Below, piece by piece: positions 7,509-27,194 of a stretch of DNA of 64,000 bases; the stretch's first letter is position 1, and each line of letters begins with the position of its first letter. The notes beneath the pieces are model-generated. The model did no database searches, was not told the DNA's origin, and saw only the letters and a list, made by a program, of their open reading frames with translations. Origin of the DNA: Escherichia phage Killian; the sequence record OQ446694.1. One strand, 5' to 3'. Made by a program: the position numbers and the translations under genes.

Positions 7509-8000
7509 ATGTTTGTAGATGATGTAACACGAGCGTTTGAATCTGGTGATTTTGCTCGACCTAACTTATTCCAAGTAGAAATTTCTTATCTTGGACAAAA
7601 TTTTACGTTTCAATGTAAAGCCACTGCTTTACCAGCTGGTATTGTAGAAAAAATTCCAGTCGGTTTTATGAACCGTAAAATTAACGTAGCAGGCGATCGT
7701 ACATTCGATGACTGGACTGTTACAGTAATGAACGATGAGGCGCATGATGCTCGCCAGAAGTTTGTTGATTGGCAAAGCATTGCTGCTGGGCAAGGGAATG
7801 AAATTACTGGTGGAAAACCAGCAGAGTATAAAAAGAGTGCTGTTGTTCGCCAATATGCTCGTGACGCTAAAACTGTAACAAAAGAAGTTGAAATTAAAGG
7901 CCTGTGGCCTACTAACGTGGGTGAACTTCAATTAGATTGGGATTCAAACAATGAAATCCAAACCTTTGAAGTAACTCTTGCTCTCGATTATTGGGAATAA
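7509..8000 (+). CDS. 19: Tail tube protein gp19
   Basis: 163 aa; synteny 18-19-20. Confidence 0.95.
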   Translation: MFVDDVTRAFESGDFARPNLFQVEISYLGQNFTFQCKATALPAGIVEKIPVGFMNRKINVAGDRTFDDWTVTVMNDEAHDARQKFVDWQSIAAGQGNEITGGKPAEYKKSAVVRQYARDAKTVTKEVEIKGLWPTNVGELQLDWDSNNEIQTFEVTLALDYWE

Positions 8001-8006
8001 AATGAA

Positions 8007-8022
8007 TGGGGAGAAATCCCCA
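8007..8022 (+). terminator. Short hairpin TGGGG-AGAAAT-CCCCA after gene 19
   Basis: 5-bp stem; weak. Confidence 0.3.
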
Positions 8023-8032
8023 TCCTGCTTAA

Positions 8033-9657
<1,625 letters not shown>

Positions 9658-9658
<1 letters not shown>

Positions 9659-9897
9659 TGGAAGGTTTAATTGAAGCTATTAAATCAAACGACCTCGTAG
9701 CCGCTCGTAAATTATTTGCTGAAGCCATGGCTGCAAGAACGATTGATTTAATTAAAGAAGAAAAAATCGCTATCGCTCGTAATTTCTTAATCGAAGGTGA
9801 AGAACCTGACGATGAAGATGACGAAGATAGCGATGATAAAGACGACAAAAAAGACAAAGACTCTGATGAAGATGACGAAGACGAGGATGATGAATAA
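9658..9897 (+). CDS. 67: Prohead core protein gp67 with poly-acidic C-terminal tail
   Basis: 79 aa; C-terminal D/E-rich tail; position between 20 and 68. Confidence 0.85.
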
Positions 9898-10322
9898 TGC
9901 TTCTGATCCCTGAAACTCATGAATTAGTTCTCGAGAATGTCGAAGCACTTATTCCTGAAGCACAGGGTCGCTTTGACGAATTGTCTTCTGCTTTAAATAA
10001 AGACGATATAAATACAATTGTCGAGAATATGCTTGATGATGAAACTGATTTAGCGGTTGCATTAGCTTCTATTAATGAAGATATGCCGCTAAATGAATTC
10101 ATCGTTAAACATGTTTCTGCTCGTGGTGAAATTACACGTACCAAAGACCGCAAAACGCGTGAACGTAATGCATTTCAAACCACCGGGCTGTCTAAAGCAA
10201 AACGTAGACAAATTGCTCGCAAAGCTACCAAAACGAAGATTGCCAATCCAGCAGGTCAATCTCGTGCTCAGCGTAAGCGTAAAAAAGCTCTTAAACGCCG
10301 TAAAGCATTAGGATTAAGCTAA
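9897..10322 (+). CDS. 68: Prohead core protein gp68
   Basis: 141 aa; basic C-terminus; synteny. Confidence 0.85.
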
Positions 10323-10960
10323 TGAATGAACCCCAATTACTAATTGAAACTTGGGGTCAACCTGGCGAAATTATTGATGGCGTGCCAATGCTTGAATCTC
10401 ATGATGGAAAAGACCTAGGTTTAAAACCCGGTTTATACATCGAAGGAATATTCATGCAAGCGGAAGTCGTCAATAGAAATAAACGTCTTTATCCAAAACG
10501 CATATTAGAAAAAGCGGTAAAAGACTATATCAATGAGCAAGTTTTAACTAAACAAGCTCTCGGAGAATTAAATCATCCTCCACGCGCTAATGTTGACCCG
10601 ATGCAAGCCGCTATCATTATAGAAGATATGTGGTGGAAAGGAAATGACGTATACGGACGAGCTCGTGTTATTGAAGGTGACCATGGTCCTGGAGATAAAT
10701 TAGCAGCTAATATTCGTGCCGGATGGATTCCAGGAGTTTCTTCTCGTGGATTAGGTTCATTGACTGACACAAATAAAGGTTATCGTATCGTAAACGAAGG
10801 ATTCAAATTAACTGTAGGTGTTGATGCAGTATGGGGTCCAAGTGCTCCAGATGCATGGGTAACTCCTAAGGAAATTACCGAATCACAGACGGCGGAAGCC
10901 GATACAAGTGCCGATGACGCCTATATGGCTCTCGCAGAGGCCATGAAAAAAGCGTTATAA
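10322..10960 (+). CDS. 21: Prohead core protease gp21
   Basis: 212 aa, same as T4 gp21. Confidence 0.95.
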   Translation: MNEPQLLIETWGQPGEIIDGVPMLESHDGKDLGLKPGLYIEGIFMQAEVVNRNKRLYPKRILEKAVKDYINEQVLTKQALGELNHPPRANVDPMQAAIIIEDMWWKGNDVYGRARVIEGDHGPGDKLAANIRAGWIPGVSSRGLGSLTDTNKGYRIVNEGFKLTVGVDAVWGPSAPDAWVTPKEITESQTAEADTSADDAYMALAEAMKKAL

Positions 10961-10990
10961 ATATTATTATCTAAACAACAGGACTACAAA

Positions 10991-11800
10991 ATGCTTAAAG
11001 AACAACTGATTGCTGAAGCGCAAAAAATTGATGCTTCCGTTGCTCTTGATAGTATTTTCGAATCAGTTAATATTTCTCCGGAAGCAAAAGAAACTTTCGG
11101 CACTGTATTCGAAGCTACCGTCAAGCAGCACGCCGTTAAATTAGCTGAATCTCATATCGCTAAAATTGCTGAAAAAGCAGAAGAAGAAGTAGAAAAAAAT
11201 AAAGAAGAAGCCGAAGAAAAAGCTGAGAAGAAAATCGCTGAGCAAGCTTCTAAATTCATCGACCATCTTGCGAAAGAATGGCTCGCTGAAAATAAATTAG
11301 CAGTTGATAAAGGCATCAAAGCCGAACTGTTTGAATCCATGCTTGGTGGATTAAAAGAGCTCTTTGTTGAACACAACGTTGTTGTTCCAGAAGAATCAGT
11401 TGATGTTGTAGCTGAAATGGAAGAAGAGCTGCAAGAACATAAAGAAGAATCAGCTCGTCTGTTCGAAGAACTCAATAAGCGTGACGCATATATCAATTAT
11501 GTGCAGCGTGAAGTGGCATTGAGCGAAAGTACTAAAGATCTGACTGAGTCTCAAAAAGAAAAAGTCTCTGCTCTGGTCGAAGGTATGGATTATTCAGATG
11601 CATTCTCAAGTAAATTGAGTGCCATCGTAGAAATGGTGAAGAAGTCTAATAAAGATGAAAGCACTATTACTGAGGGTATAAATACTCCTGATACTGAAGC
11701 AGCCGGACTGAATTTCGTCACTGAAGCTGTAGAAGATAAAGCTGCACCTGGTGCAGAAGATATTGTAAGTGTATATGCGAAAGTCGCATCTCGTTTCTAA
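10991..11800 (+). CDS. 22: Prohead core scaffold protein gp22
   Basis: 269 aa, E/K-rich coiled-coil-like; synteny. Confidence 0.95.
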   Translation: MLKEQLIAEAQKIDASVALDSIFESVNISPEAKETFGTVFEATVKQHAVKLAESHIAKIAEKAEEEVEKNKEEAEEKAEKKIAEQASKFIDHLAKEWLAENKLAVDKGIKAELFESMLGGLKELFVEHNVVVPEESVDVVAEMEEELQEHKEESARLFEELNKRDAYINYVQREVALSESTKDLTESQKEKVSALVEGMDYSDAFSSKLSAIVEMVKKSNKDESTITEGINTPDTEAAGLNFVTEAVEDKAAPGAEDIVSVYAKVASRF

Positions 11801-11818
11801 TTTTAAAGGTTAACACAA

Positions 11819-13384
11819 ATGACTATCAAAACTAAAGCTGAACTTTTGAACAAATGGAAGCCATTACTGGAAGGTGAAGGTTTACCGGAAATTGCTAATA
11901 GCAAACAAGCGATTATCGCTAAAATCTTTGAAAACCAGGAAAAAGATTTCCAGACAGCTCCAGAGTACAAAGACGAAAAAATCGCTCAGGCGTTCGGTTC
12001 TTTCTTAACAGAAGCTGAAATCGGTGGTGACCACGGTTACAACGCTACTAACATTGCTGCTGGTCAGACTTCTGGCGCAGTAACTCAGATTGGCCCAGCT
12101 GTTATGGGTATGGTACGTCGTGCTATTCCTAACCTGATTGCTTTCGATATTTGTGGTGTTCAGCCGATGAACAGCCCGACTGGTCAGGTATTCGCACTGC
12201 GCGCAGTATATGGTAAAGACCCAATCGCTGCTGATGCTAAAGAAGCATTCCACCCAATGTATGGTCCAGATGCAATGTTCTCTGGTCAGGGTGCTGCTAA
12301 GAAATTCCCAGCTCTGGCTGCTAGCACACAAACCAAAGTAGGTGATATCTATACTCACTTCTTCCAGGAAACTGGTACTGTATATCTGCAAGCTTCTGCT
12401 CAAGTAACAATTAGTTCTACTGCAGATGATGCAGCTAAATTAGATGCTGAAATTAAGAAACAAATGGAAGCTGGCGCATTGGTAGAAATCGCTGAAGGTA
12501 TGGCTACTTCTATCGCTGAACTTCAGGAAGGTTTCAACGGTTCTACCGATAACCCATGGAATGAAATGGGCTTCCGTATCGATAAACAAGTTATCGAAGC
12601 TAAATCTCGTCAGCTGAAAGCTGCTTACTCTATCGAATTAGCACAAGACCTCCGCGCTGTTCACGGTATGGATGCTGATGCTGAACTGTCTGGTATTCTG
12701 GCTACCGAAATCATGTTGGAAATCAACCGTGAAGTTGTTGATTGGATTAACTACTCAGCTCAGGTTGGTAAATCTGGTATGACCCTGACTCCGGGTTCTA
12801 AAGCTGGTGTATTTGACTTCCAGGATCCGATTGATATTCGTGGTGCTCGCTGGGCGGGTGAATCCTTTAAAGCTCTGTTGTTCCAGATTGACAAAGAAGC
12901 AGTTGAAATTGCTCGTCAGACCGGTCGTGGTGAAGGTAACTTCATTATCGCTTCCCGTAACGTAGTTAACGTTCTGGCTTCAGTTGATACTGGCATTTCT
13001 TATGCTGCACAGGGTCTGGCTACCGGCTTTAACACTGATACTACCAAGTCAGTATTTGCTGGTGTTCTGGGTGGTAAATACCGTGTATATATCGACCAGT
13101 ATGCTAAACAGGATTATTTCACTGTAGGTTATAAAGGTCCGAACGAAATGGATGCTGGTATTTACTACGCTCCATATGTAGCTCTGACTCCGCTGCGTGG
13201 TTCCGATCCGAAGAACTTCCAACCGGTAATGGGATTCAAAACTCGTTACGGTATCGGTATCAACCCATTTGCAGAATCCGCTGCTCAGGCTCCGGCTTCT
13301 CGCATCCAGAGCGGTATGCCTTCTATTCTGAATAGCCTTGGTAAAAACGCTTACTTCCGCCGTGTATATGTTAAAGGTATCTAA
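11819..13384 (+). CDS. 23: Major capsid protein gp23
   Basis: 521 aa; sequence essentially identical to T4 gp23 as I recall it. Confidence 0.98.
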   Translation: MTIKTKAELLNKWKPLLEGEGLPEIANSKQAIIAKIFENQEKDFQTAPEYKDEKIAQAFGSFLTEAEIGGDHGYNATNIAAGQTSGAVTQIGPAVMGMVRRAIPNLIAFDICGVQPMNSPTGQVFALRAVYGKDPIAADAKEAFHPMYGPDAMFSGQGAAKKFPALAASTQTKVGDIYTHFFQETGTVYLQASAQVTISSTADDAAKLDAEIKKQMEAGALVEIAEGMATSIAELQEGFNGSTDNPWNEMGFRIDKQVIEAKSRQLKAAYSIELAQDLRAVHGMDADAELSGILATEIMLEINREVVDWINYSAQVGKSGMTLTPGSKAGVFDFQDPIDIRGARWAGESFKALLFQIDKEAVEIARQTGRGEGNFIIASRNVVNVLASVDTGISYAAQGLATGFNTDTTKSVFAGVLGGKYRVYIDQYAKQDYFTVGYKGPNEMDAGIYYAPYVALTPLRGSDPKNFQPVMGFKTRYGIGINPFAESAAQAPASRIQSGMPSILNSLGKNAYFRRVYVKGI

Positions 13385-13399
13385 TCTTTGACGATTTAA

Positions 13400-13428
13400 G
13401 GGACCTTCGGGTCCCTTTAGTTGTTTTT
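13400..13428 (+). terminator. Hairpin GGGACC-TTCG-GGTCCC plus T-tract after gene 23
   Basis: 6-bp GC stem, TTCG loop, followed by TTTAGTTGTTTTTAT. Confidence 0.6.
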
Positions 13429-13432
13429 ATGG

Positions 13433-13440
13433 TATAAATA
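13433..13440 (+). promoter_or_regulatory. Late promoter TATAAATA upstream of gene 24
   Basis: Exact TATAAATA about 28 nt upstream of the ATG. Confidence 0.6.
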
Positions 13441-13467
13441 AATCATATAAACCAAAAGGAAAGCGCA

Positions 13468-14751
13468 ATGGCTAAAATCAACGAACTTCTGCGCGAATCA
13501 ACCACAACGAATAGCAACTCAATCGGTCGCCCAAATCTCGTTGCTTTGACTCGCGCTACCACTAAATTAATATATTCTGACATTGTAGCAACGCAAAGAA
13601 CTAATCAACCTGTTGCTGCTTTTTATGGTATCAAATACCTTAACCCAGATAACGAATTTACATTTAAAACTGGTGCTACTTACGCCGGCGAAGCTGGGTA
13701 TGTAGACCGAGAACAAATCACAGAATTAACAGAAGAGTCTAAATTAACTCTCAATAAAGGCGATTTATTCAAATATAATAATATCGTTTATAAAGTATTA
13801 GAAGATACACCATTTGCTGATATTGAAGAAAGCGATTTAGAATTAGCTCTTCAGATTGCAATTGTTCTTTTAAAGGTTCGTCTATTTTCTGATGCTGCAG
13901 TAACAAGCAAATTTGAAAGCTCTGATAGTGAAATTGCGGATGCTAGATTCCAGATTAATAAATGGCAAACCGCAGTTAAATCTCGTAAACTTAAAACTGG
14001 CATCACAGTCGAATTAGCACAAGATTTAGAAGCAAATGGATTCGATGCTCCTAATTTCTTGGAAGATTTGCTTGCAACTGAAATGGCGGATGAAATCAAT
14101 AAAGATATTCTACAGTCTTTGATTACAGTATCAAAACGCTATAAAGTTACAGGAATTACTGATACTGGATTCATTGATTTGAGTTATGCATCTGCACCTG
14201 AAGCTGGTCGTTCATTATACCGAATGGTGTGTGAAATGGTTTCACATATTCAGAAAGAATCAACTTATACAGCAACGTTCTGTGTTGCTTCAGCTCGTGC
14301 CGCTGCGATTCTTGCTGCATCAGGTTGGTTAAAACATAAACCAGAAGATGACAAATATCTTTCACAAAATGCCTACGGGTTCTTAGCTAATGGTTTACCG
14401 CTTTATTGCGATACCAACAGTCCATTAGATTATGTAATCGTTGGCGTAGTAGAAAATATTGGTGAAAAAGAAATTGTTGGATCAATTTTCTATGCTCCGT
14501 ATACAGAAGGTCTTGACTTAGATGACCCTGAACATGTAGGTGCATTTAAAGTTGTAGTTGATCCAGAAAGTTTGCAGCCATCTATCGGTTTATTAGTTAG
14601 ATATGCTTTATCTGCAAATCCTTACACTGTAGCAAAAGATGAAAAAGAAGCAAGAGTAATTGATGGTGGAGACATGGATAAAATGGCGGGTCGTTCAGAT
14701 TTGTCTGTTTTATTAGGTGTTAAGTTACCAAAAATTATCATTGATGAATAA
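13468..14751 (+). CDS. 24: Capsid vertex protein gp24
   Basis: 427 aa, same as T4 gp24; paralog of gp23. Confidence 0.95.
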   Translation: MAKINELLRESTTTNSNSIGRPNLVALTRATTKLIYSDIVATQRTNQPVAAFYGIKYLNPDNEFTFKTGATYAGEAGYVDREQITELTEESKLTLNKGDLFKYNNIVYKVLEDTPFADIEESDLELALQIAIVLLKVRLFSDAAVTSKFESSDSEIADARFQINKWQTAVKSRKLKTGITVELAQDLEANGFDAPNFLEDLLATEMADEINKDILQSLITVSKRYKVTGITDTGFIDLSYASAPEAGRSLYRMVCEMVSHIQKESTYTATFCVASARAAAILAASGWLKHKPEDDKYLSQNAYGFLANGLPLYCDTNSPLDYVIVGVVENIGEKEIVGSIFYAPYTEGLDLDDPEHVGAFKVVVDPESLQPSIGLLVRYALSANPYTVAKDEKEARVIDGGDMDKMAGRSDLSVLLGVKLPKIIIDE

Positions 14752-14757
14752 AACAAA

Positions 14758-14779
14758 GGGACCGAAAGGTCCCTTTTTA
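14758..14779. terminator. Bidirectional terminator hairpin GGGACC-GAAA-GGTCCC between 24 (+) and rnlB (-)
   Basis: Stem flanked by A-run upstream and T-run downstream; sits between convergent genes. Confidence 0.65.
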
Positions 14780-14780
14780 T

Positions 14781-15785
14781 TTAACTTACCAATTCAATCC
14801 AAGCCGGACGAAGTACATCTTGTACCATTTTAACTAATTCCTTCTTAATCAAAGAAGGATTATCCGCTTGAGTTAGAGTAATACCTTCACGAGAAGTTTC
14901 TTCCAAAATATCTTGAACCGTTAGTCCCATCACCTTTCCAAAATCTTTTGGACCGATTTCGCCAATTTTAGAAATAACGTTATTTACTCGGTTCAGTGTA
15001 ACGTAACAAGCTAAAATTCCAACCAATTTGTTATCAGCTTCTGACAGTTCAACTTTAGCTTTAATAGGCTTATCAGACTTTTTCTTTTCACTAAATTTAG
15101 AGTTCTTGCATTTGATAGCTACGCGATTGCCATTAGGCATCCAAGAAGGATAACAAGGTTTCAATACATATCCTTCAGCGGTAAATACTTCGCCTTTTAC
15201 TTCAGCATTCCAAACGCATTTATTCGCATCAACTAATCCAGCATGGTCTACTGTAAAATTATAATCTTGGACGACAGAATCTAAATCATTTGGCAATTTA
15301 ATAAGCTCTTCAAATTTACCGCGACCTAAAAGTGGAGCCATTTTAAATTTAAATGTATTACAGAATGATTCCATCATATAATCATCGACATAAGTCACAT
15401 CACCACTTTCTGTAGTAACAATAATGTCAAATACATAAAAATCTTTATCGCCATAATCGACATTCTTCTGAATGCCAGGTCCGGCAAATTCACCGAAGAC
15501 TTGATAAGATACAACCGCTGAAGTTTCCATAATATCTTGTACTGCTTTAATGGAATCAGCGTAATTCTTCAAAATAATTTCATACCCAAAGAAATCTTCA
15601 GCAGGAAGAATAGGACCAGTTCGTTTAGCACAAGTTACTTTATCACGCTCAATAATCAATGAGAAATTTGTGCCATGAATCTTTTCACGAGCTACCCATT
15701 CGCCACCAGTCAATCCTAAACTATAAAGTTTTTCAATGAATTTAGAATTGTAATGATTTTCAAGACTGCTATACTTTTTAAACAT
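14781..15785 (-). CDS. rnlB: RNA ligase 2
   Basis: 334 aa, same as T4 Rnl2; nucleotidyltransferase-like KIHGTN; convergent with 24 as in T4. Confidence 0.9.
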
Positions 15786-15794
15786 AATTAATCC

Positions 15795-16073
15795 TCAAAA
15801 TGTAATTTCTAACCAATCACCATCACGCTGATCACTATTGACTTTAAAGCTAAATCCTTCTTTTCTCAGCCAATCACCAATTTCTTCAGTAATCAATTTA
15901 TCGCGAGCAGTACAATAATAACTAAAATATGTTTTACCTTGTTCAGCTGCTTTATTAGCAAGTTCCGAAAAATCTTTAATAAAACACTCTAACTTAAACT
16001 GTTTACTTTTAAGTGCTTTTTCACGTAATTGATTAGCAAAAGATTCATTTTCATAAAGATCATACTGTTCCAT
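15795..16073 (-). CDS. Hypothetical protein (T4 24.2 position)
   Basis: 92-aa ORF in the expected position; no recognised motif. Confidence 0.6.
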   Translation of the reverse strand: MEQYDLYENESFANQLREKALKSKQFKLECFIKDFSELANKAAEQGKTYFSYYCTARDKLITEEIGDWLRKEGFSFKVNSDQRDGDWLEITF

Positions 16074-16076
16074 TTT

Positions 16077-16262
16077 TCACCTTTTATTAATATGTCTTTT
16101 TCTATAGACAACTTTTTCTCGAGTTTCAAATTTATTCTTAGCAGTCATAGCTCGAGCCCATAATACAGCCACTTCTTTCGCCTGTAAGTTTAATTCACGA
16201 GCAATTTCAATGAATGACTTTCCAGACTCATGAAGAGTAAACACCACAACCTCAGTTCTCAT
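16077..16262 (-). CDS. Hypothetical small protein (T4 24.3 position)
   Basis: 61-aa ORF tightly packed downstream of the hoc hairpin. Confidence 0.55.
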   Translation of the reverse strand: MRTEVVVFTLHESGKSFIEIARELNLQAKEVAVLWARAMTAKNKFETREKVVYRKRHINKR

Positions 16263-16340
16263 ATCAATCTCACGTTATCGAGTTGATGCCATTATATACA
16301 TCATTTTCTGAGTATGTTTTGTGTGCTTTCAAAATGAAGA

Positions 16341-16358
16341 AAGGGGCCGAAGCCCCTT
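16341..16358 (-). terminator. Hairpin GGGGC-CGAA-GCCCC immediately after hoc stop
   Basis: 5-bp GC stem with tetraloop downstream of hoc on the minus strand. Confidence 0.45.
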
Positions 16359-16368
16359 ATGATTATGA

Positions 16369-17787
16369 TTATGGATAGGTATAGATGATACCAGTTTCTA
16401 AAGCAGTTTTATGAATGATGTATCCATTACGTGATTCTTGAACATCAACTTCTGGATAGTCTTTCATCATCTTCTGAAGAGTGTAACGATGCAGGTAGTA
16501 TTTACTGTCTGGATCTTCAGTTTTCCAATCTTTACCTTCTTCGGTCATTTTTTGGATTTCATCCATAACCCACCAACCGCACCAGATATAAGCTGAAGTA
16601 CGATGTGGAAGAGGATGAACATAAGGCAATTCACCTTCTGGTTCCGGAGCAACTTTATCAGTTACCTGAACTTGGCCTGTTGCTTTAACTGTTTTACTAT
16701 CATAGTCGGTTGCTGTAACGACAGCAGTAACTTCAATAGTTTGACTTCCAATAGATGAGGTGTCAACGGTGTATACGTTAGTTGACCCTTCTACAGGAGA
16801 AGAATCTTTCTTCCATGAGTATTCGATTTGTGCTTCTTCTGGAGCATCAGTGACATTAGCCGTAAATGTAGCCGAAGCATCTTGCTGAACGTTAATAGAA
16901 GGAGGAGTCAATGTAACCTGCGGATTCATTGTCTTCTTATTAACTGTCAATGATACTTCATTAGAAGTAACTTCCTTTTCATTGTAATTTTCAGCCGTTA
17001 CTTGGGCTACACACTTAACTGTTTTAGCTCCAACTGTGGTAGGAGTATAGTTAAATGTAGTAGTAGTTTCTCCATCGACCAGAGAACCGTCAACATACCA
17101 CTGATACGTAGCAGACGCTCCTGGTGGCTGTGAATCCAAGGCAGCAGTAAATTGAACTGGGGTTCCAATTACTCCGGCAGCAGGATTAGCAGGAGTTACG
17201 GCTAACGTAGTTGTCTGTGTTTTCTTATTAACTGTTAATGATACTTCATTAGAAGTAACTGTTTTTGCGTCATAATCTGTTGCTGTTACTTGAGCTACAC
17301 ACTTGATTTTTTTAACTCCGCTTGTGTCAGGAGTGTAATTGAATGTAGCGTCAGTTGCTTCGTCTACAGGAGAACCGTCAACGTGCCATTGATACGTAGC
17401 GTTTGCACCTGATGGCTGTGAAGCTAAGGCAGCGGTAAATTCAATTGGAGTTCCAATCACTCCAGCATCAGGGCTACCAGGAGTTACAGCTAAAGTAGTT
17501 GTTTGTGTTTTATTTTTGACTGTGATAGTTGTCGTAGTTTCTGCTGTTTCAGGATCAGCTTCTGGAACTGTATTTGTTGCAACCACCTTAATAGTCTTTT
17601 GACCTGCAGGTCCTTTTAGTACATAGCTAAAAGTTGCTTCAGCTCCATCCTGTGGAACATTATCTACACTCCAAGCATAGGTAATAGTTCCACCTTCAGT
17701 TTGACCACTGGGTGTAGCAGTAAACTGCTTGGTTTCATCAATAACTCCTGTTGGGGTTTTAGGAGTTATATCAACTGTAAAAGTCAT
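16369..17787 (-). CDS. hoc: Highly immunogenic outer capsid protein Hoc, with an extra Ig-like domain
   Basis: 472 aa against 376 aa in T4; N- and C-termini match T4 Hoc; contains two about 96-aa near-identical Ig-like repeats. Confidence 0.9.
   Translation of the reverse strand: MTFTVDITPKTPTGVIDETKQFTATPSGQTEGGTITYAWSVDNVPQDGAEATFSYVLKGPAGQKTIKVVATNTVPEADPETAETTTTITVKNKTQTTTLAVTPGSPDAGVIGTPIEFTAALASQPSGANATYQWHVDGSPVDEATDATFNYTPDTSGVKKIKCVAQVTATDYDAKTVTSNEVSLTVNKKTQTTTLAVTPANPAAGVIGTPVQFTAALDSQPPGASATYQWYVDGSLVDGETTTTFNYTPTTVGAKTVKCVAQVTAENYNEKEVTSNEVSLTVNKKTMNPQVTLTPPSINVQQDASATFTANVTDAPEEAQIEYSWKKDSSPVEGSTNVYTVDTSSIGSQTIEVTAVVTATDYDSKTVKATGQVQVTDKVAPEPEGELPYVHPLPHRTSAYIWCGWWVMDEIQKMTEEGKDWKTEDPDSKYYLHRYTLQKMMKDYPEVDVQESRNGYIIHKTALETGIIYTYP
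16942..17517 (-). repeat. Tandem duplication of a 288-bp Ig-like domain unit inside hoc
   Basis: Protein repeats KNKTQTTTLAVTP...SNEVSLTV occur twice back to back; DNA shows the same about 40-nt string near 16930 and 17220. Confidence 0.85.
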
Positions 17788-17796
17788 AAGTTATCC

Positions 17797-18477
17797 TTAT
17801 TTTAATGTTACGAAAGAAGAATTGCGTGTTTCACGAATTAGAACTGATCCGTCACGATTAATGTAGTAAATTAAGCTAAATAAAGTTTGATGCGCAGACG
17901 CATGTTCAAAACTGGTTGGGCGAGATTTCCAATCTGGAGTTTCAGCAATCCATTGGTAAATCCACCAAGGAACAGTGCAGAATCCTGGATTTTTTCCAAT
18001 CAGCTGAAGATTTGGGCTAAAGTTTTCCGGAAGAGTAAATACAGACGGCTTTTCAGATTCAATAATCTCAGCTACAGCCTGTTCGAATTTTTCTTCAACA
18101 AAAGGAGTATCTTCAATCAAAACATCGGTATTTTCAGGAATTTTATCCGTTTCTACTACTTCAATTTTAATGTCAGATTTAACCGGAGAATCAATCAGAA
18201 GTGCTGCCTCTGGATTGACTTCTTCATCGTCATATTTTAATCCGTCTGCGGCATCAGCAGCATCGATTAAGTCTTTAATAGATAACCCATCAGTCTCTGG
18301 CATAGGTTCACTAGCGAGCTTCTGGAGGGCTTCTTCAATATCATTAACGATATTATCAAAAGATTTATTCTTTTTGACCTTTATACCAAACTGTTCAGCA
18401 TATTCAGCTAATTTAGCTTTAGCTTCTTTATTATCATCAAGAGCCTTCAGCTTTGCAATATAATCTTTATCTATCAT
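17797..18477 (-). CDS. inh: Inhibitor of prohead protease
   Basis: 226 aa, same length and position as T4 inh. Confidence 0.85.
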   Translation of the reverse strand: MIDKDYIAKLKALDDNKEAKAKLAEYAEQFGIKVKKNKSFDNIVNDIEEALQKLASEPMPETDGLSIKDLIDAADAADGLKYDDEEVNPEAALLIDSPVKSDIKIEVVETDKIPENTDVLIEDTPFVEEKFEQAVAEIIESEKPSVFTLPENFSPNLQLIGKNPGFCTVPWWIYQWIAETPDWKSRPTSFEHASAHQTLFSLIYYINRDGSVLIRETRNSSFVTLK

Positions 18478-18527
18478 AATATTTCCTCAGTATAAATATA
18501 GATATATTTATTACATGGTATTTAAAC

Positions 18528-20039
18528 ATGACTGACATTAAAGTACATTTTTATGATTTTAGTCACGTGAGAATTGATTGCGAAGAAAGTACATTTCATG
18601 AACTCCGTGATTTCTTTAGCTTTGAAGCTGATGGGTATCGTTTTAATCCGAAATACAAATATGGCCACTGGGATGGACGAATTCGTCTTTTAGATTATAA
18701 TCGCCTTCTTCCATTCGGTTTAGTCGGGCAAATTAAAAAGTTCTGTGATAACTTTGGCTATAAAGCCTGGATTGACCCGCAAATTAACGAAAAAGAAGAA
18801 TTATCAAGAAAAGATTTTGATGAATGGCTTTCTAAATTAGAAATCTATTCAGGAAATAAAAGAATTGAACCGCATTGGTATCAAAAAGATGCAGTGTTCG
18901 AAGGATTAGTTAATCGTCGTAGAATTCTTAATCTTCCAACATCCGCAGGTAAATCTTTAATTCAAGCTTTGCTCGCTCGGTATTATTTGGAAAATTATGA
19001 AGGCAAAATTCTTATCATTGTTCCAACAACTGCTCTGACAACTCAGATGGCTGATGACTTTGTTGACTATCGTTTATTCAGTCATGCAATGATAAAGAAA
19101 ATCGGCGGTGGAGCATCAAAAGATGATAAATATAAAAATGATGCACCGGTCGTTGTTGGTACATGGCAAACTGTAGTAAAACAACCAAAAGAATGGTTCT
19201 CACAGTTTGGAATGATGATGAATGATGAATGTCATCTTGCTACAGGAAAAAGTATTTCATCTATCATATCAGGTTTAAATAACTGTATGTTTAAATTTGG
19301 TTTGTCTGGTTCATTGCGCGATGGCAAAGCTAATATCATGCAGTATGTTGGAATGTTCGGTGAAATATTTAAGCCAGTAACGACCTCTAAATTAATGGAA
19401 GATGGACAAGTAACTGAGTTAAAAATTAATAGTATTTTTCTTCGCTATCCCGATGAGTTCACTACTAAATTAAAGGGAAAAACTTACCAAGAAGAAATAA
19501 AAATTATTACTGGGCTCAGTAAAAGAAATAAATGGATCGCTAAATTAGCTATTAAGCTTGCGCAAAAAGATGAAAATGCTTTTGTCATGTTTAAACACGT
19601 ATCGCACGGTAAAGCTATTTTCGATTTAATTAAAAATGAATACGATAAAGTTTATTACGTATCAGGGGAAGTTGATACCGAAACCCGCAATATAATGAAA
19701 ACCTTAGCTGAAAACGGTAAAGGAATAATTATAGTAGCTAGTTATGGTGTATTTTCTACCGGTATTTCAGTTAAAAATCTGCATCACGTTGTTTTAGCAC
19801 ACGGTGTTAAATCTAAAATTATTGTATTGCAAACAATAGGTCGCGTATTACGTAAGCATGGTTCTAAAACAATCGCAACAGTCTGGGACCTCATAGATGA
19901 CGCGGGCGTAGTTTCTAAATCAAAAACATCTTCTAAAAAATACTCGCATTTAAACTATCTTTTAAAACATGGACTTGATCGTATTCAGCGTTATGCTGAT
20001 GAGAAGTTTAATTATGTGATGAAAGAGGTTAAACTTTGA
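18528..20039 (+). CDS. uvsW: UvsW RNA-DNA / DNA helicase
   Basis: 503 aa; helicase motifs (DECH box, TSAGKS Walker A-like). Confidence 0.9.
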   Translation: MTDIKVHFYDFSHVRIDCEESTFHELRDFFSFEADGYRFNPKYKYGHWDGRIRLLDYNRLLPFGLVGQIKKFCDNFGYKAWIDPQINEKEELSRKDFDEWLSKLEIYSGNKRIEPHWYQKDAVFEGLVNRRRILNLPTSAGKSLIQALLARYYLENYEGKILIIVPTTALTTQMADDFVDYRLFSHAMIKKIGGGASKDDKYKNDAPVVVGTWQTVVKQPKEWFSQFGMMMNDECHLATGKSISSIISGLNNCMFKFGLSGSLRDGKANIMQYVGMFGEIFKPVTTSKLMEDGQVTELKINSIFLRYPDEFTTKLKGKTYQEEIKIITGLSKRNKWIAKLAIKLAQKDENAFVMFKHVSHGKAIFDLIKNEYDKVYYVSGEVDTETRNIMKTLAENGKGIIIVASYGVFSTGISVKNLHHVVLAHGVKSKIIVLQTIGRVLRKHGSKTIATVWDLIDDAGVVSKSKTSSKKYSHLNYLLKHGLDRIQRYADEKFNYVMKEVKL

Positions 20040-20728
20040 ATTATAAATTAATATATGATAATTTAATTAATAGAGCCCAGAATCGGGCTCGCCTTAATGG
20101 ATACACTGAAACTCATCATATAATTCCTAGATGTATGGGTGGTACAGATGATAAGTGTAATTTGGTAGAACTAACAGCTGAAGAGCATTTTATAGCTCAT
20201 AAACTTTTAGCTAAAATTCATCCAAACCATTACGGTATAATTAAAGCCGTTATATGTATGGGAATGAATTCAAATACTCATGAAAGACACGTTAATAAAT
20301 CTTACGCCTGGGAACGTCGTAAAATGGCAAAACTTCAATCAGGTGAAGGTAATCCATTTTACGGAAAACACCATACGGAAGAACATAAACAATATATGTC
20401 AAAACTCATGAAAAATCGTCCAATTACGTGGGGAAGTAAAATTAGTAAAACTAAAAGAATGAACCCAACAAAATGGACTGAAGAAGCTAAAAGATTGCAT
20501 TCTATCAATCAATCAGGTAAAAATAATGGCATGTATGGAAGGAAACATTCCGCTAAATCTATTCAGAAAATTAAAGATAACATGCCAGATAATTCAGGAG
20601 CTAATAACCCAGCTGCTAAACCTATAGAAGTAAATGGTGTTAAGTATAAATGCATGAAAGATGCTTCTAAAGCTACTGGATTATCAATGTACAAACTAAG
20701 AATACTTAGAAAAACAGTTAATTTATAA
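20036..20728 (+). CDS. HNH homing endonuclease, MobE-like, with NUMOD-like repeats
   Basis: N-terminus ...YTETHHIIPRCMGGTDDKCNLVELTAEEHFIAH closely parallels the mobE product at 47946-48587; apparent TTG start overlapping the uvsW stop with AGAGG about 8 nt upstream. Confidence 0.8.
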   Translation: MNYKLIYDNLINRAQNRARLNGYTETHHIIPRCMGGTDDKCNLVELTAEEHFIAHKLLAKIHPNHYGIIKAVICMGMNSNTHERHVNKSYAWERRKMAKLQSGEGNPFYGKHHTEEHKQYMSKLMKNRPITWGSKISKTKRMNPTKWTEEAKRLHSINQSGKNNGMYGRKHSAKSIQKIKDNMPDNSGANNPAAKPIEVNGVKYKCMKDASKATGLSMYKLRILRKTVNL

Positions 20729-20740
20729 GGGCTTCGGCCC
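20729..20740 (+). terminator. Small hairpin GGGC-TTCG-GCCC after the HNH gene
   Basis: 4-bp GC stem with tetraloop; weak; directly abuts the uvsW.1 ribosome-binding site. Confidence 0.3.
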
Positions 20741-20753
20741 TTTGGAGAAAAAG

Positions 20754-20984
20754 ATGTTACTAGAATTTAAACAATTTCTTTATGAAGCTTCTATTGATGA
20801 ATTTATGGGTAAAATTGCCTCTTGTCAAACAATAGAAGGTCTAGAAGAACTTGAAGCTTATTATAAGAAAAGAGTTAAAGAAACTGAATTAAAAGATACT
20901 GATGACATCTCAGTCAGAGATGCTTTGGCAGGAAAAAGAGCTGAATTAGAAGATTCAGACGATGAAGTAGAAGAAAACTTTTAA
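20754..20984 (+). CDS. uvsW.1: UvsW.1 small acidic helical protein
   Basis: 76 aa from the ATG at 20754 (track start 20742 is TTG), preceded by GGAG; acidic; T4 UvsW.1 is 76 aa. Confidence 0.7.
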   Translation: MLLEFKQFLYEASIDEFMGKIASCQTIEGLEELEAYYKKRVKETELKDTDDISVRDALAGKRAELEDSDDEVEENF

Positions 20985-21039
20985 ATTAAAAAAGGCCCAA
21001 CCAAAAAGGAAGGGCCAAAACTATAGACTAAAGGTCACA

Positions 21040-21207
21040 CTATAGCAAAAGTTGAGTTTCATTTAATTGTTCTTCCGAACTTTCTGAAACTGGTAGTTCT
21101 TTAATGTAATTATAACAAGGCCCAGGATGTACAGGACCTTTGTCTGTTTCAACAACCAATGCAGAATCGATTGGAGTTTTACAGACAACGCAAATCTTAT
21201 CTGACAT
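21040..21207 (-). CDS. Small Cys-containing protein (uvsY.-2 position), not in the ORF track
   Basis: 55-aa ORF MSDKICVVCKTPIDS... with GAGGAG 6 nt upstream of the ATG; fills the gap between uvsW.1 and uvsY.-1. Confidence 0.6.
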   Translation of the reverse strand: MSDKICVVCKTPIDSALVVETDKGPVHPGPCYNYIKELPVSESSEEQLNETQLLL

Positions 21208-21235
21208 GATTGTCTCCTCTAAATTATATATCTAT

Positions 21236-21460
21236 TTATATAACTCTCATATGCATATCAATGCCCATATCTTTAGAATAAAAATATTCATCAAGATATC
21301 CGGCAAATTTTCCTTTAACATAAAGTACATCTTCACCACATGGATGATCGGCCAGGATACGAATATCCTGACGCTTGAGATTATACTTTTTCATTAAGAA
21401 TTGAATTTCCGTTTCGAATTCTTCTTCATAATTAAAAGCATCATCAATGCTATATTTCAT
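21236..21460 (-). CDS. Hypothetical protein (uvsY.-1 position)
   Basis: 74-aa ORF immediately upstream of uvsY. Confidence 0.65.
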   Translation of the reverse strand: MKYSIDDAFNYEEEFETEIQFLMKKYNLKRQDIRILADHPCGEDVLYVKGKFAGYLDEYFYSKDMGIDMHMRVI

Positions 21461-21873
21461 TATTTTCCAGCCTCAAATGCTCGCATGTCTTGAATATGCT
21501 TAATAGCAAATCCGCGTGATTTAATAGCATCAAGAGCTCCGCTACAGAAATCCAATAAAATTCCCCAATACTGCAATGAAGTATCAACTTTTAAAACATC
21601 CTTATCAGCTGATAGAACTGTCTTCATTTCTGATTTCTCATAACGGTCCATACTAAATTCATCACCATCTCCTCGTCCCGAGTAGTAGTCTAATTTAGCT
21701 TTAAGAGCAACTTTTTTCTGTGCTTCAATTCTAAGCATTTCCTTTTTAATACTTGAATGCTTATTGAGCCATTTACTATATAACATCACATTATTAGCTG
21801 CTTCATACTGTAATTTAGTCGAATCTATAAACACATCTTTCTTCAATTCTTCTTGAAGATCTTCTAATTTCAT
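21460..21873 (-). CDS. uvsY: Recombination mediator UvsY
   Basis: 137 aa, same as T4 UvsY; synteny with 25/26. Confidence 0.9.
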   Translation of the reverse strand: MKLEDLQEELKKDVFIDSTKLQYEAANNVMLYSKWLNKHSSIKKEMLRIEAQKKVALKAKLDYYSGRGDGDEFSMDRYEKSEMKTVLSADKDVLKVDTSLQYWGILLDFCSGALDAIKSRGFAIKHIQDMRAFEAGK

Positions 21874-21939
21874 ATTGTTCTCTATTCAATTGTTATTGGA
21901 TGGACTTAGATTCATTATACCACGTTTATACGTGAAGCA

Positions 21940-22338
21940 TTATACTCTGTTACTGGAAGCCAGTTGTAGTTTTATCTGCTCAATATCATCAGGGTTATCA
22001 ATGACTGAAAAGCGTATTTCTACTATCAGAGTATAATCATCATAAACCGGTATTACATTAACTGCTAATTTATCAATACGTGGCTCGTAGTTTCTTACTG
22101 CGCTTTCAATGTTACGCTCAACAGTATCAGCAGTAAGAGGAGTCATATTCTCAAAAAGCTGATCAGATAAATCGCATCCAAATTCTGGGTCAAATGGCCT
22201 TGACCCTTTCCTGGTTGTAATAATTCCTAAAAGGCTATTTTTAATTGACCTTAATCCAAGGGATCTAGAAACATCTTTATCCCAATCCATTTTCATTTCT
22301 GGGTCAATGTCAGAATAAAGCTTATTAATATTTGCCAT
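21940..22338 (-). CDS. 25: Baseplate wedge protein gp25
   Basis: 132 aa; synteny. Confidence 0.9.
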   Translation of the reverse strand: MANINKLYSDIDPEMKMDWDKDVSRSLGLRSIKNSLLGIITTRKGSRPFDPEFGCDLSDQLFENMTPLTADTVERNIESAVRNYEPRIDKLAVNVIPVYDDYTLIVEIRFSVIDNPDDIEQIKLQLASSNRV

Positions 22339-22964
22339 TACAATAGCTCAAAGAATTCTTTGAGTCCTCTTATTACATGAGCGTGAGTTTTTCCACACTC
22401 TGGACACTTAATTGGAACAGCCAAATAAACAGTAGGCTTTAAAAGCATATCTTTTATAGCTACAATATCTGACTCTGTGATGATAGAATATAAATCTTCC
22501 AGTTCTTTTTCATTTAAGTCTTCAACTGGAATGCTTTCACCGTTAGCATGAATCGTTTCTATACATGATACTATCATGTGGGCTATATTTTTATCATCAA
22601 AAATTTTAGGGTAATGGAACTTAATTTTAATGTCACCCAGTGTATACCAGAGGTCTTCTGGTGCATCTATTTGTGTATGTAATAGATTTATATGGGTTGG
22701 TATTTCAGCTCCACAGGTGCACTTCCAGGAGTTTTCATGATTAACTTCTCCAAGAGAATGCGCCCATAAATGAATCAGCAGTAGTTCTGATTCTTGACGG
22801 TTTAAATCTTTTGCATTTGTGCATTCTTTGATTAGCTTTTTAACGATCTCTTCTACTGAACCGTTCTTTTTAGCAGTAATAAGCTCTAGATATTCTTTAA
22901 GAGTAAATGCGCGACAGTTGATTATTTTAGAACCAACTCTCACATCAAATTTGTATTCATACAT
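22338..22964 (-). CDS. 26: Baseplate hub protein gp26
   Basis: 208 aa; synteny; divergent from gene 51. Confidence 0.85.
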
Positions 22965-22985
22965 ATTTAGCTCCTTTATTTATCA

Positions 22986-22997
22986 TATTTATAAATA
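22986..22997. promoter_or_regulatory. Overlapping divergent late promoters between genes 26 (-) and 51 (+)
   Basis: TATTTATAAATA: TATAAATA reads on the plus strand at 22990-22997 and on the minus strand at 22986-22993. Confidence 0.6.
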
Positions 22998-23014
22998 GAA
23001 TAAAAGGAGCATCT

Positions 23015-23767
23015 ATGGCAAACATTATTCGTTGTAAATTACCAGATGGTGTTCATCGTTTTAAACCATTTACGGTAGAAGATTATCGAGATTTTTTGTT
23101 AGTTCGAAACGATATAGAACATCGGTCACCACAAGAACAAAAAGAAATAATTGCTGATTTAATTGCCGATTATTTTGGAGACTATCCGAAGACTTGGCAA
23201 CCATTTATATTTTTGCAGGTATTTGTAGGGTCAATAGGTAAAACTAAAGTACCGGTCACATTTGCATGTCCAAAATGCAAAAAAGAAAAGACAGTTCCAT
23301 TTGAAATATATCAAAAAGAATTAAAGGAACCTGTTTTTGATGTAGCTAATGTTAAAATTAAATTAAAGTTTCCTTCTGAGTTTTATGAAAATAAAGCAAA
23401 GATGATTACTGAAAATATTCATTCCGTTCAAGTAGATGAAATGTGGTATGATTGGAAGGAAATTAGCGAATCGAGTCAAATAGAACTTGTTGATGCCATC
23501 GAGATAGAAACATTAGAAAAAATTCTCGATGCAATGAATCCTATTAATTTAACATTGCATATGTCGTGTTGTAATAAGTATGTAAAAAAATACACTGATA
23601 TAGTAGATGTGTTTAAGCTATTAGTTAATCCAGATGAGATATTTACTTTTTATCAAATTAATCACACACTTGTAAAAAGTAATTATAGCTTAAATTCAAT
23701 AATGAAAATGATTCCTGCTGAGCGCGGATTCGTATTAAAACTGATTGAGAAGGATAAACAACAATGA
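23015..23767 (+). CDS. 51: Baseplate hub assembly catalyst gp51
   Basis: 250 aa; synteny 26-51-27. Confidence 0.85.
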
Positions 23768-24939
23768 GTATGTTGCAACGCCCCGGATATCCAAATCTCA
23801 GCGTTAAATTATTTGAGAGTTATGACGCTTGGAGTAATAATAGATTTGTTGAATTAGCTGCTACTATTACCACATTAACTATGCGGGATTCTCTTTATGG
23901 TCGAAATGAAGGAATGCTGCAGTTTTATGATTCTAAAAATATCCATACAAAAATGGATGGAAATGAAATAATTCAGATTTCTGTAGCTAATGCAAACGAT
24001 ATTAATAATGTTAAAACACGAATTTATGGATGTAAGCACTTTTCCGTATCGGTAGATTCAAAGGGTGATAACATCATTGCTATTGAATTGGGAACTATTC
24101 ATTCTATAGAAAATCTTAAATTTGGCAGACCGTTTTTCTCTGATGCAGGTGAATCTATAAAGGAAATGCTTGGTGTCATTTATCAGGATCGCACGTTATT
24201 AACTCCAGCAATAAATGCCATAAATGCCTATGTTCCTGATATTCCATGGACTAGCACATTTGAAAACTATTTGTCGTATGTCAGAGAAGTTGCTCTAGCT
24301 GTAGGAAGTGACAAATTTGTATTTGTATGGCAAGACATCATGGGAGTTAACATGATGGACTATGATATGATGATAAATCAAGAACCATATCCAATGATTG
24401 TCGGTGAGCCATCTTTAATAGGTCAATTCATCCAAGAATTAAAATATCCATTAGCATATGATTTCGTTTGGTTGACTAAATCGAATCCTCATAAACGCGA
24501 CCCAATGAAAAATGCTACTATTTATGCTCATTCATTTTTAGATTCTTCATTGCCAATGATTACTACAGGAAAGGGCGAAAACTCTATTGTAGTGTCAAGG
24601 TCAGGTGCTTATTCTGAAATGACTTATAGGAATGGCTATGAAGAAGCTATTCGTCTTCAAACTATGGCACAATACGATGGCTATGCTAAATGTTCTACTG
24701 TCGGTAATTTTAACTTGACTCCTGGCGTTAAAATTATTTTTAATGATAGTAAAAACCAATTTAAAACAGAATTTTACGTTGATGAAGTTATCCATGAATT
24801 ATCCAATAATAATTCAGTAACTCATCTATATATGTTCACTAATGCAACGAAACTGGAAACAATAGACCCAGTTAAGGTTAAAAATGAATTTAAATCTGAT
24901 ACTACCACTGAAGAAAGTAGTTCTTCCAATAAGCAATAA
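23764..24939 (+). CDS. 27: Baseplate hub protein gp27
   Basis: 391 aa, same as T4 gp27. Confidence 0.9.
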
Positions 24940-25417
24940 AGAAGTTTCTATTCCTAAAATGGGTCTTAAACATTATAACATTTTAAAAGATGTTAAAGGT
25001 CCTGATGAAAATTTAAAACTTCTTATTGATTCTATTTGTCCGAATTTATCACCGGCAGAAGTTGATTTCGTTTCTATTCATTTATTGGAATTTAATGGAA
25101 AGATTAAATCTCGTAAAGAAATAGATGGTTATACTTATGACATTAATGATGTTTATGTATGCCAAAGATTAGAATTTCAATACCAAGGAAATACATTTTA
25201 TTTTAGACCTCCTGGAAAATTTGAGCAATTTTTGACAGTAAGCGATATGTTATCTAAATGCTTGCTTAAGGTCAATGATGAAGTTAAAGAAATTAATTTT
25301 CTTGAGATGCCAGCATTTGTATTAAAATGGGCAAATGATATTTCTACAACTTTAGCAATTCCTGGCCCTAATGGTCCAATAACTGGAATTGGCAATATTA
25401 TTGGATTATTTGAATGA
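24884..25417 (+). CDS. 28: Baseplate hub distal subunit gp28
   Basis: 177 aa; overlaps the 3' end of gene 27. Confidence 0.85.
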
Positions 25418-27186
25418 AAAAGCCACAAGAAATGCAAACGATGCGTAGAAAAGTTATTTCAGATAATAAACCAGTTCAGGAAGCGGCTAAATCCGCTTCT
25501 AACACTTTATCTGGGCTTAATGACATTTCTACAAAATTGGATGATGCTCAAGCTGCTTCTGAATTAATAGCTCAAACCGTTGAAGAAAAATCGAATGAAA
25601 TAATTGGAGCAATTGACAATGTAGAAAGCGCAGTGAGTGATACTACTGCTGGTTCTGAGTTAATTGCTGAAACTGTAGAAATTGGCAACAATATTAATAA
25701 AGAAATCGGTGAATCACTCGGAAGTAAATTAGATAAATTAACGAGTTTACTAGAACAAAAAATTCAAACAGCTGGAATTCAACAGACAGGAACCAGCTTA
25801 GCTGTAGTCGAAAGTGCTATTCCCGTTAAAGTTGTCGAGGATGATACAGCTGAATTTGTTGGTCCATTATTACCAGCTCCTGAAGCAGTTAATAATGATC
25901 CTGACGCTGATTTTTTCCCTGCCCCTCAACCAGTTGAACCTAAGCGAGAGTCACCGGAAGAAAAACAGAAAAAAGAAGCATTTAATTTAAAATTATCTCA
26001 AGCTTTAGATAAATTAACAAAGACTGTTGATTTTGGATTTAAAAAATCCATTTCAATTACTGATAAAATATCAAGCATGCTATTTAAGTATACTGTCAGT
26101 GCTGCTATTGAAGCTGCTAAAATGGTTGCATTAATAATGGCTGTTGTTATTGGAATAGACCTACTGATGGTTCATTTTAAATATTGGTCAGATAAATTTT
26201 CAAAAGCCTGGGATTTGTTTAGCACTGATTTTAAAACTTTTTCAAGCGAAACCGGAACTTGGGGTCCTTTATTACAGAGCATCTTTGAATCTATTGATGA
26301 AATTAAAAAGTTCTGGGAAGCGGGAGATTGGGGCGGTTTGACGGTAGCTATTGTAGAAGGGCTTGGAAAGGTTCTTTATAATTTAGGAGAACTTATTCAG
26401 CTTGGAATGGCTAAATTATCAGCAGCAATTCTTCGAGTTATTCCTGGTATGAAAGATACTGCTGACGAAGTAGAAGGAAGAGCACTAGAAAATTTCCAAA
26501 ATTCTACTGGAGCATCTCTCAATAAAGAAGACCAGGAAAAAGTTGCAAATTATCAAGATAAACGAATGAACGGAGACCTTGGTCCGATAGCAAAAGGATT
26601 AGATAAAATTGCTAATTGGAAAACTCGTGCATCTAACTGGATTCGTGGCGTTGATAATAAAGAAGCACTAACTACCGATGAAGAACGCGCAGCAGAAGAA
26701 GAAAAATTAAAGCAACTTTCACCTGAAGAAAGAAAAAATGCTTTAATGAAGGCTAATGAAGCGCGCGCCGCGATGATTCGCTTTGAAAAATATGCTGATT
26801 CGGCTGATATGAGTAAAGACTCAACAGTTAAATCAGTTGAAGCTGCCTATGAAGACCTTAAAAAACGGATGGATGACCCGGATTTAAATAATTCACCGGC
26901 AGTTAAAAAAGAACTTGCTGCTAGATTTTCTAAAATTGATGCTACTTATCAAGAGCTCAAGAAAAATCAGCCTAATGCCAAACCTGAAACTTCTGCTAAA
27001 TCGCCAGAAGCAAAACAAGTCCAGGTAATAGAAAAGAACAAAGCACAGCAAGCTCCTGTTCAACAAGCATCTCCTTCAATCAATAATACTAATAATGTTA
27101 TTAAGAAAAATACTGTCGTTCATAATATGACACCCGTAACGAGCACAACTGCTCCTGGTGTATTTGGCGCGACTGGAGTTAATTAA
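25414..27186 (+). CDS. 29: Baseplate hub / tail length tape-measure protein gp29
   Basis: 590 aa, same as T4 gp29; low-complexity A/E/K-rich. Confidence 0.9.
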   Translation: MKKPQEMQTMRRKVISDNKPVQEAAKSASNTLSGLNDISTKLDDAQAASELIAQTVEEKSNEIIGAIDNVESAVSDTTAGSELIAETVEIGNNINKEIGESLGSKLDKLTSLLEQKIQTAGIQQTGTSLAVVESAIPVKVVEDDTAEFVGPLLPAPEAVNNDPDADFFPAPQPVEPKRESPEEKQKKEAFNLKLSQALDKLTKTVDFGFKKSISITDKISSMLFKYTVSAAIEAAKMVALIMAVVIGIDLLMVHFKYWSDKFSKAWDLFSTDFKTFSSETGTWGPLLQSIFESIDEIKKFWEAGDWGGLTVAIVEGLGKVLYNLGELIQLGMAKLSAAILRVIPGMKDTADEVEGRALENFQNSTGASLNKEDQEKVANYQDKRMNGDLGPIAKGLDKIANWKTRASNWIRGVDNKEALTTDEERAAEEEKLKQLSPEERKNALMKANEARAAMIRFEKYADSADMSKDSTVKSVEAAYEDLKKRMDDPDLNNSPAVKKELAARFSKIDATYQELKKNQPNAKPETSAKSPEAKQVQVIEKNKAQQAPVQQASPSINNTNNVIKKNTVVHNMTPVTSTTAPGVFGATGVN

Positions 27187-27194
27187 GGAATAAT

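Follow-up and report, generated by a model that had tools for sequence, protein, structure and literature searches.

The decoration protein Hoc of Escherichia phage Killian (sequence record OQ446694.1) is 472 aa long, against 376 aa in phage T4, which raises the question of how, and how long ago, a T4-type hoc gene came to encode an additional domain. The initial annotation of this locus answered that a recent 288-bp in-frame tandem duplication had created an extra Ig-like domain. Having analysed a stretch of 64,000 nucleotides of the phage DNA around the gene (hereafter the window), we find that this answer is supported in part: the extra Ig-like domain did originate as a tandem repeat, but this repeat is not recent and not specific to the lineage. 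The explanation that we favour as a whole, with a probability of roughly 0.7, is that a T4-type hoc gene encodes a four-Ig fibre here, that the repeated domain belongs to an old, reshuffled array, and that the allele of the window arose from a three-unit allele through the loss of one unit.

A T4-type Hoc is expected to sit as one copy at the centre of each gp23 hexamer of the mature capsid, and to be dispensable for growth. By homology and by position, the gene at 16369..17787 is the hoc of a T4-type (Tequatrovirus-like) phage. The product of the 472-aa open reading frame matches T4 Hoc (5vf3_Z, 376 aa) in phmmer with an E-value of 2e-215, in an alignment that falls into two blocks: residues 1–190 correspond to T4 residues 1–190, and residues 273–472 to T4 residues 177–376. 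The protein is T4 Hoc with exactly 96 extra residues, which bears out the length difference reported initially, and the domains on either side of the repeat, N-terminal and C-terminal (capsid-binding), match those of T4 Hoc, as had also been noted. It is acidic, with a pI of 4.6, and has a calculated mass of about 50.8 kDa, against about 40 kDa for T4 Hoc. The gene order in the window (rnlB, 24.2, 24.3 (DUF2774), hoc, inh, uvsW) is identical to that of T4, and hoc occupies the place expected of it in a T4-type head gene region, between 24.3 and inh. We rejected the alternative of coding on the opposite strand, as the plus strand has no open reading frame of at least 60 aa that overlaps the repeat.

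The 20 kb around hoc are 96–98% identical to many Tequatrovirus genomes, the best being that of Shigella phage vB_SsoM_113 at 97.9%. The hoc gene itself (16369–17787) is clearly more divergent from database phages than its flanks (8000–28000), with a best match of 95.3% versus 97.9%. The exact Hoc protein of the window was not found in a collection of 15 billion protein sequences; the window hoc is a new allele, while the four-Ig Hoc as such is known and common.

The neighbourhood also differs from that of T4 in its homing endonuclease genes. A 230-aa open reading frame on the plus strand (20036–20728), with a TTG start and overlapping the uvsW stop, is likely to encode a homing endonuclease, since its product has two NUMOD3 motifs and a weak HNH match. 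The matching position in vB_SsoM_113 is annotated as “homing endonuclease” (L008, 11751–12443), and T4 has no gene there. Two genes of this kind found in relatives are absent from the window: segD, whose place in T4 is between genes 23 and 24, a gap of less than 90 nt in the window (13385–13467), and segE, which in T4, RB14 and Elenatom lies between inh and uvsW, where the gap is again less than 90 nt (18478–18527).

Within hoc, Tandem Repeats Finder reports a period of 288 at 16930–17523 (2.1 copies, 79% matches, no indels, score 745), and a second repeat search returned two 288-nt copies at a spacing of 288 nt. Codon register places two in-frame units, aa 91–186 and 187–282, at 16942–17517, exactly where the initial annotation had put them (Table 1). 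Unit 1 starts with KNKTQTTTLAVTP and unit 2 with NKKTQTTTLAVTP, and both do end in SNEVSLTV as described. Hoc domain 2 is thus present a second time in the 96 additional residues, as a tandem repeat, in frame, of one Ig-like domain. The protein identity between the copies, put at about 80%, was an overestimate: the units share 70 of 96 residues (73%) and 226 of 288 nucleotides (78.5%), and are identical at 64 of 96 third codon positions. Apart from this 73% pair, the four Ig-like domains are mutually 29–45% identical, and for this reason Hoc as a whole seems to have arisen through serial duplication of domains.

Table 1. Positions in the window of hoc, its domains and its docking partner.
Feature	Coordinates	Strand	Remarks
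hoc CDS	16369..17787	minus	472 aa + stop; head outer capsid (decoration) protein
Ig-like domain 1 (D1, aa 1–90)	17518..17787	minus	aligns with T4 Hoc 1–90; 97.8% nt identity to UGKSEcP1; all-beta in AlphaFold2 model, block pLDDT 86–94
Domain-2 unit 1 (aa 91–186), chimera	17230..17517	minus	alpha type at unit nt 1–225; beta type at nt 234–288
Putative crossover interval, unit positions 226–233	17285..17292	minus	in-silico deletion breakpoint 225–233; informative sites flank it at 225 and 234
Domain-2 unit 2 (aa 187–282), gamma type	16942..17229	minus	orthologue of the third unit of five-Ig Hocs
Ig-like domain 3 (D3, aa 283–376)	16660..16941	minus	aligns with T4 Hoc 187–280; block pLDDT 85–95
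C-terminal capsid-binding domain (aa 377–472)	16372..16659	minus	aligns with T4 Hoc 281–376
Gene 23, major capsid protein, Hoc docking partner	11819..13384	plus	open reading frame, 521 aa; D336 and P337 present

Pfam, AlphaFold2 and Foldseek agree that the protein begins with the linear string of Ig-like (PKD/I-set-like) domains that is expected of a Hoc. PKD scores above its Pfam cut-off, and matches to Ig_2, Ig_3 and I-set fall below theirs, with Ig_3 and I-set lying over residues 289–374. In the AlphaFold2 model, for which 30 aligned sequences were used, four domains are all-beta, with pLDDT mostly at or above 90, and the C-terminal domain is poorly modelled (pLDDT 28–64). Foldseek matches the model to four-Ig fragments of Sidekick, Dscam and ICAM-5, and also to the Hoc of RB49 (3shs); the global superposition TM-scores of 0.15–0.3 reflect flexible inter-domain angles and are usable for the fold class only.

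The C-terminal part of the protein corresponds to the capsid-binding region of T4 Hoc, residues 273–472 aligning with T4 residues 177–376 at 404 bits. T4 Hoc contacts the capsid through H299, R300, W306 and W310, with D336 and P337 on the gp23 side (PMC10385173). The Hoc residues are H395, R396, W402 and W406 in the window and are invariant in 30 four-Ig Hocs, and the gp23 of the window retains D336 and P337; judged on these contacts, the capsid-binding domain is intact. By homology with T4, it would plug into the centre of each gp23 hexamer, and the protein should decorate the capsid much as T4 Hoc does. The four-domain fibre of T4 Hoc is about 180 Å long (PMC10385173), and that of the window should project one Ig domain further, roughly 4–5 nm; the initial reading of a displayed fibre longer by one domain can be accepted in this form. 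Capsid adhesins of the mucus-adherence (BAM) kind are defined by the binding of mucin glycans through the Ig-like domains of Hoc. In PNJ-9 Hoc, binding to MUC2 reportedly needs an SLT motif formed by S183, L184 and T185 of domain 2 (PMC11853027). This motif occurs twice in the window protein, at aa 183–185 and 279–281, and by analogy the domain-2 surface that includes it, a putative mucin contact, should be presented twice.

The origin of the repeat is best approached through the units found in other phages. Clustered by average linkage, the 153 units of the 376-, 472- and 568-aa Hocs fall into two deep clades. First units predominate in one of them: it contains those of every three-unit array and those of 29 of the 30 two-unit arrays, along with 11 single units. 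Second and third units are all in the other, as are the unit of T4 and 60 other single units. We call units 1, 2 and 3 of phage UGKSEcP1 alpha, beta and gamma, and typed the remainder, cut from the three length classes by fixed 96-aa slicing, by their middle segments. The window has the make-up of the four-Ig class, namely two tandem 96-aa units, the first of the alpha clade and the second of the beta/gamma clade. With the reservation that the types are defined from a single reference phage and that many mosaic units cannot be assigned clearly, two-unit arrays are alpha-beta in 16 cases, alpha-gamma in 7, beta-gamma in 3 and beta-beta in 1, with 3 more having an ambiguous second unit, and reversed unit order is not seen among the typed arrays. 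Single-unit Hocs are mostly beta-like (50), with 8 alpha-like and 9 gamma-like. Typed segment by segment, the window reads aab-ggg, an alpha unit with a beta tail followed by a gamma unit, a pattern shared with only P0010 among the 29 four-Ig representatives typed.

Painting of residues and nucleotides by type reveals many chimeric units with differing breakpoints, among them the second units of Kelasse, P0015 and P0020 (beta/gamma) and the single unit of Elenatom (alpha/gamma). Since the chimeric units of other alleles have their breakpoints elsewhere, exchange events appear to be recurrent. Arrays that are heterotypic yet ordered, alongside single units of each of the three types, may be seen as the outcome of repeated unequal crossovers in an old multi-unit array, a picture that is well supported, though not proven, by these sequences.

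The allele of the window can be placed within this picture by comparison with the three-unit gene of UGKSEcP1. Between the two, D1 is 97.8% and D3 with the C-terminus 97.9% identical at the nucleotide level, and unit 2 of the window is 99.3% identical to unit 3 of UGKSEcP1 and 98.3% to unit 3 of YUEEL01, versus 77% to their units 1 and 2. Unit 1 of the window is composite. Seventy-two sites separate unit 1 from unit 2 of UGKSEcP1, and the window agrees with unit 1 at 60 of the first 62 (positions up to 225) and, over positions 234–285, with unit 2 at each of the remaining 10, which is a clean single switch of the kind that marks an unequal crossover (Fisher P = 1.2e-10); the beta-type tail is the tail of unit 2 in five-Ig alleles. 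When one unit is removed in silico from the UGKSEcP1 hoc, with the breakpoint at 225–233, the product is 98.4% identical to the window gene, and a one-unit deletion from the YUEEL01 hoc has the same breakpoint. Among the actual four-Ig genes of the phage collection, that of sb1 comes closest, at 95.3%. After the in-silico deletion, 23 of 1419 sites still differ from UGKSEcP1, and because these are clustered in D1 and D3 (hoc nt 201–279 and 936–969), the patchy differences point to further recombination since.

In the Tequatrovirus and Mosigvirus population, domain 2 forms an array of one, two or three 288-nt units, yielding Hocs of 376, 472 and 568 aa respectively. We propose that the units are old, position-specific paralogues, alpha, then beta, then gamma, which purifying selection has maintained and homologous recombination has rearranged. 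The ancestor of the window allele was most likely a three-unit alpha-beta-gamma hoc like that of UGKSEcP1, in which units 1 and 2 would have recombined out of register within unit positions 226–233, with the loss of exactly one 288-nt unit, and left a chimeric first unit with an intact gamma unit after it. The fibre that results would consist of D1, D2-alpha/beta, D2-gamma, D3 and the conserved C-terminal domain.

The direction of this event was probably loss and not gain. The same junction would be expected from the reciprocal event, an out-of-register exchange between a window-like allele and an alpha-beta allele that produced a five-Ig gene, or from gene conversion of the unit-1 tail. It is conceivable that the window carries an old alpha-gamma allele that never had a beta unit, and that either a short gene conversion from another unit or phage supplied its beta tail, or the five-Ig alleles were themselves built from window-like alleles by reciprocal unequal crossover. 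Patchy mosaicism is indeed common in the units (T4, LF73P3, and the second units of sb1 and Kelasse), an unchimeric alpha-gamma protein exists (P0009), and the tail motif ATDYDAKTV is found on the gamma-type single unit of LF73P3 as well. However, such a history calls for two or more events, or else for two parents that differ, whereas one deletion suffices to explain the junction and also why the sequence on either side of it is nearly identical to UGKSEcP1, and we consider this history unlikely.

Loss of a unit from an old array differs from the explanation first given, in which domain 2 was recently duplicated in the window lineage, as a 288-bp in-frame tandem copy, in a T4-like three-Ig hoc. 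The form of the repeat, perfectly in frame, one domain long and without indels, is what such an event would leave, and T4 does have a single unit. A recent duplication should, however, yield near-identical copies with negligible synonymous divergence, while 21.5% of nucleotides differ between the two copies and the Nei-Gojobori estimates are 0.61 for dS and 0.165 for dN (dN/dS 0.27). Outside the repeat, the dS of the window hoc is 0.35–0.40 to T4 hoc (Nei-Gojobori) and 0.05–0.33 to other relatives; as the dS between the units exceeds these values, the units predate the split among the hoc genes sampled. By their codon substitutions, both are maintained under purifying selection. Each copy also has its own orthologues in other phages: unit 1 is 95–98% identical in nucleotides to unit 1 of sb1, ime09, Kelasse, UGKSEcP1 and YUEEL01, and unit 2 has its counterparts, at 96–99% identity, in unit 2 of ime09 and in unit 3 of both UGKSEcP1 and YUEEL01, against about 77% between the window units and the non-corresponding units of those phages, or between a copy and its neighbour. 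Homotypic arrays, the expected product of a fresh duplication, make up only 1 of the 27 typed two-unit arrays, and their near-absence likewise disfavours it.

Nor is the architecture restricted to the window genome or its closest relatives. For our census, the 680 matching phage records were sampled at even spacing, and the 50 full-length rows of this sample were classed by span and number of pieces, because coverage figures are unfit for counting four-Ig genes (single-unit genes are also 100% covered, in two pieces). Twenty-three of these records have hoc in one piece of 1419–1425 nt and the remaining 27 span 1131–1137 nt, which puts the four-Ig fraction at about 46% (Wilson interval 33–60%), although the sampled proteins and records are related and the counts are not phylogenetically independent. 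Cluster representatives of 376, 472 and 567–570 aa occur in the protein collection, the 568-aa, three-unit form is found in at least 20 cultured phages, and 472-aa Hocs are present in hundreds of GenBank records. In IMG/VR, junction-specific degenerate patterns detected the D2–D3 junction in 4 contigs, 1 of them also with the unit–unit junction, which is too few for an estimate. Unit number does not track genome relatedness, as the nearest genome by flanks, that of vB_SsoM_113 (97.9%), has a 376-aa Hoc. With the four-Ig form in about half of the relatives and in a phage filed under Mosigvirus, and with a window allele that looks like a five-Ig gene minus one unit, neither the recent date of the duplication nor the implied direction, a T4-like three-Ig gene gaining a domain in the window lineage, holds up, and we regard this history, which the divergence of the copies and the separate orthologues of each already contradict, as very improbable.

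Least credible of all is an assembly artefact, whether a single-copy domain that was expanded or two alleles of a mixed sample that were merged: misassembly at tandem repeats is well known, but the units differ at 62 of 288 sites, their longest identical run, 24 nt, falls short of what would mislead standard assemblers, the open reading frame is unbroken, 30 cluster representatives of 472 aa align without one gap, and the same layout recurs in many independent complete genomes, dozens of independently sequenced phages sharing the 1419-nt architecture.

Two database entries deserve separate mention. The phage filed under Mosigvirus is moskry (MN850651), for whose 472-aa Hoc the depositor had already annotated a repeat_region. 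Its hoc (L004, 1501–2919) is 88.9% identical in nucleotides to that of the window with a non-repeat dS of about 0.27, and is as distant as Tequatrovirus alleles are; because it is only as distant as these, it suggests either exchange across genus boundaries or a questionable classification. The other, Escherichia phage T4_ev151 (LR597660; H125, 107091–108794), is named as a T4 derivative, yet has a 568-aa five-Ig Hoc where T4 Hoc has 376 aa.

Among known Hocs, that of T4 (PDB 5vf3, 8t1x; 376 aa) resembles the window protein in gene position, in its colinear D1, D3 and capsid-binding domain and in its H/R/W contacts, but it has one domain-2 unit of the beta/gamma clade in place of an alpha/beta chimera and a gamma unit. 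The 472-aa Hocs of sb1, ime09, HP3, pSs-1 and Kelasse, and also of moskry, have the same length and domain layout at 85–94% amino acid and 89–95% nucleotide identity. The 568-aa five-Ig Hocs of Escherichia phages (UGKSEcP1, UGKSEcP2, YUEEL01, EC101 and others) are the closest relatives overall after removal of one unit, UGKSEcP1 foremost; they differ in having an alpha unit and a beta unit, each complete, in place of the one alpha/beta chimera of the window, and have one Ig-like domain more. Beyond these, the PNJ-9 Hoc without domain 3, the RB49 Hoc (3shs) and the Muldoon Hoc with its 10 Ig-like domains likewise combine a conserved capsid-binding domain with a variable Ig-like string (PMC10385173, PMC11853027). 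In those cases other domains vary or the genera are distant, whereas in the window it is the copy number of one domain that varies among very close genomes.

The window had initially been presented as a natural example of domain-number variation in a decoration protein. It is no special case, since such variation in Hoc was already documented: 650 Hoc homologues have from one to ten Ig-like domains (PMC10385173), a Hoc without domain 3 is known (PMC11853027), and variation in domain number is also described in PMC11150434. The literature that we searched contains general statements on varying domain number only, and does not describe the 472- or 568-aa Hocs of Tequatrovirus, the array of domain-2 units or its contraction. 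The dynamics of the array are the only part of our results that goes beyond the existing record.

For the window itself, the result is mainly corrective: the feature is real but ordinary, being neither recent nor unique. T4 nanoparticle vaccines use Hoc as their display scaffold, and T4-like therapeutic phages have been proposed to adhere to mucus by means of it; natural alleles with one, two or three copies of domain 2 offer a ready-made isogenic series in which fibre length and valency can be set against mucin binding, immunogenicity and gut retention. A broader idea, which we put forward tentatively and hold to be possible more than probable, is that domain 2 may be a recombination-driven cassette array (alpha-beta-gamma, one to three units, order kept) that has been repeatedly contracted, and perhaps expanded and shuffled, and that would tune fibre length, antigenicity and glycan binding in the manner of a contingency locus; the three-Ig Hoc of T4 might then be a reduced derivative of a longer ancestral fibre. 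For the family, closely related genomes differ in the copy number of domain 2, probably through simple unequal crossovers, and the Hoc of T4 is not the typical form of Hoc.
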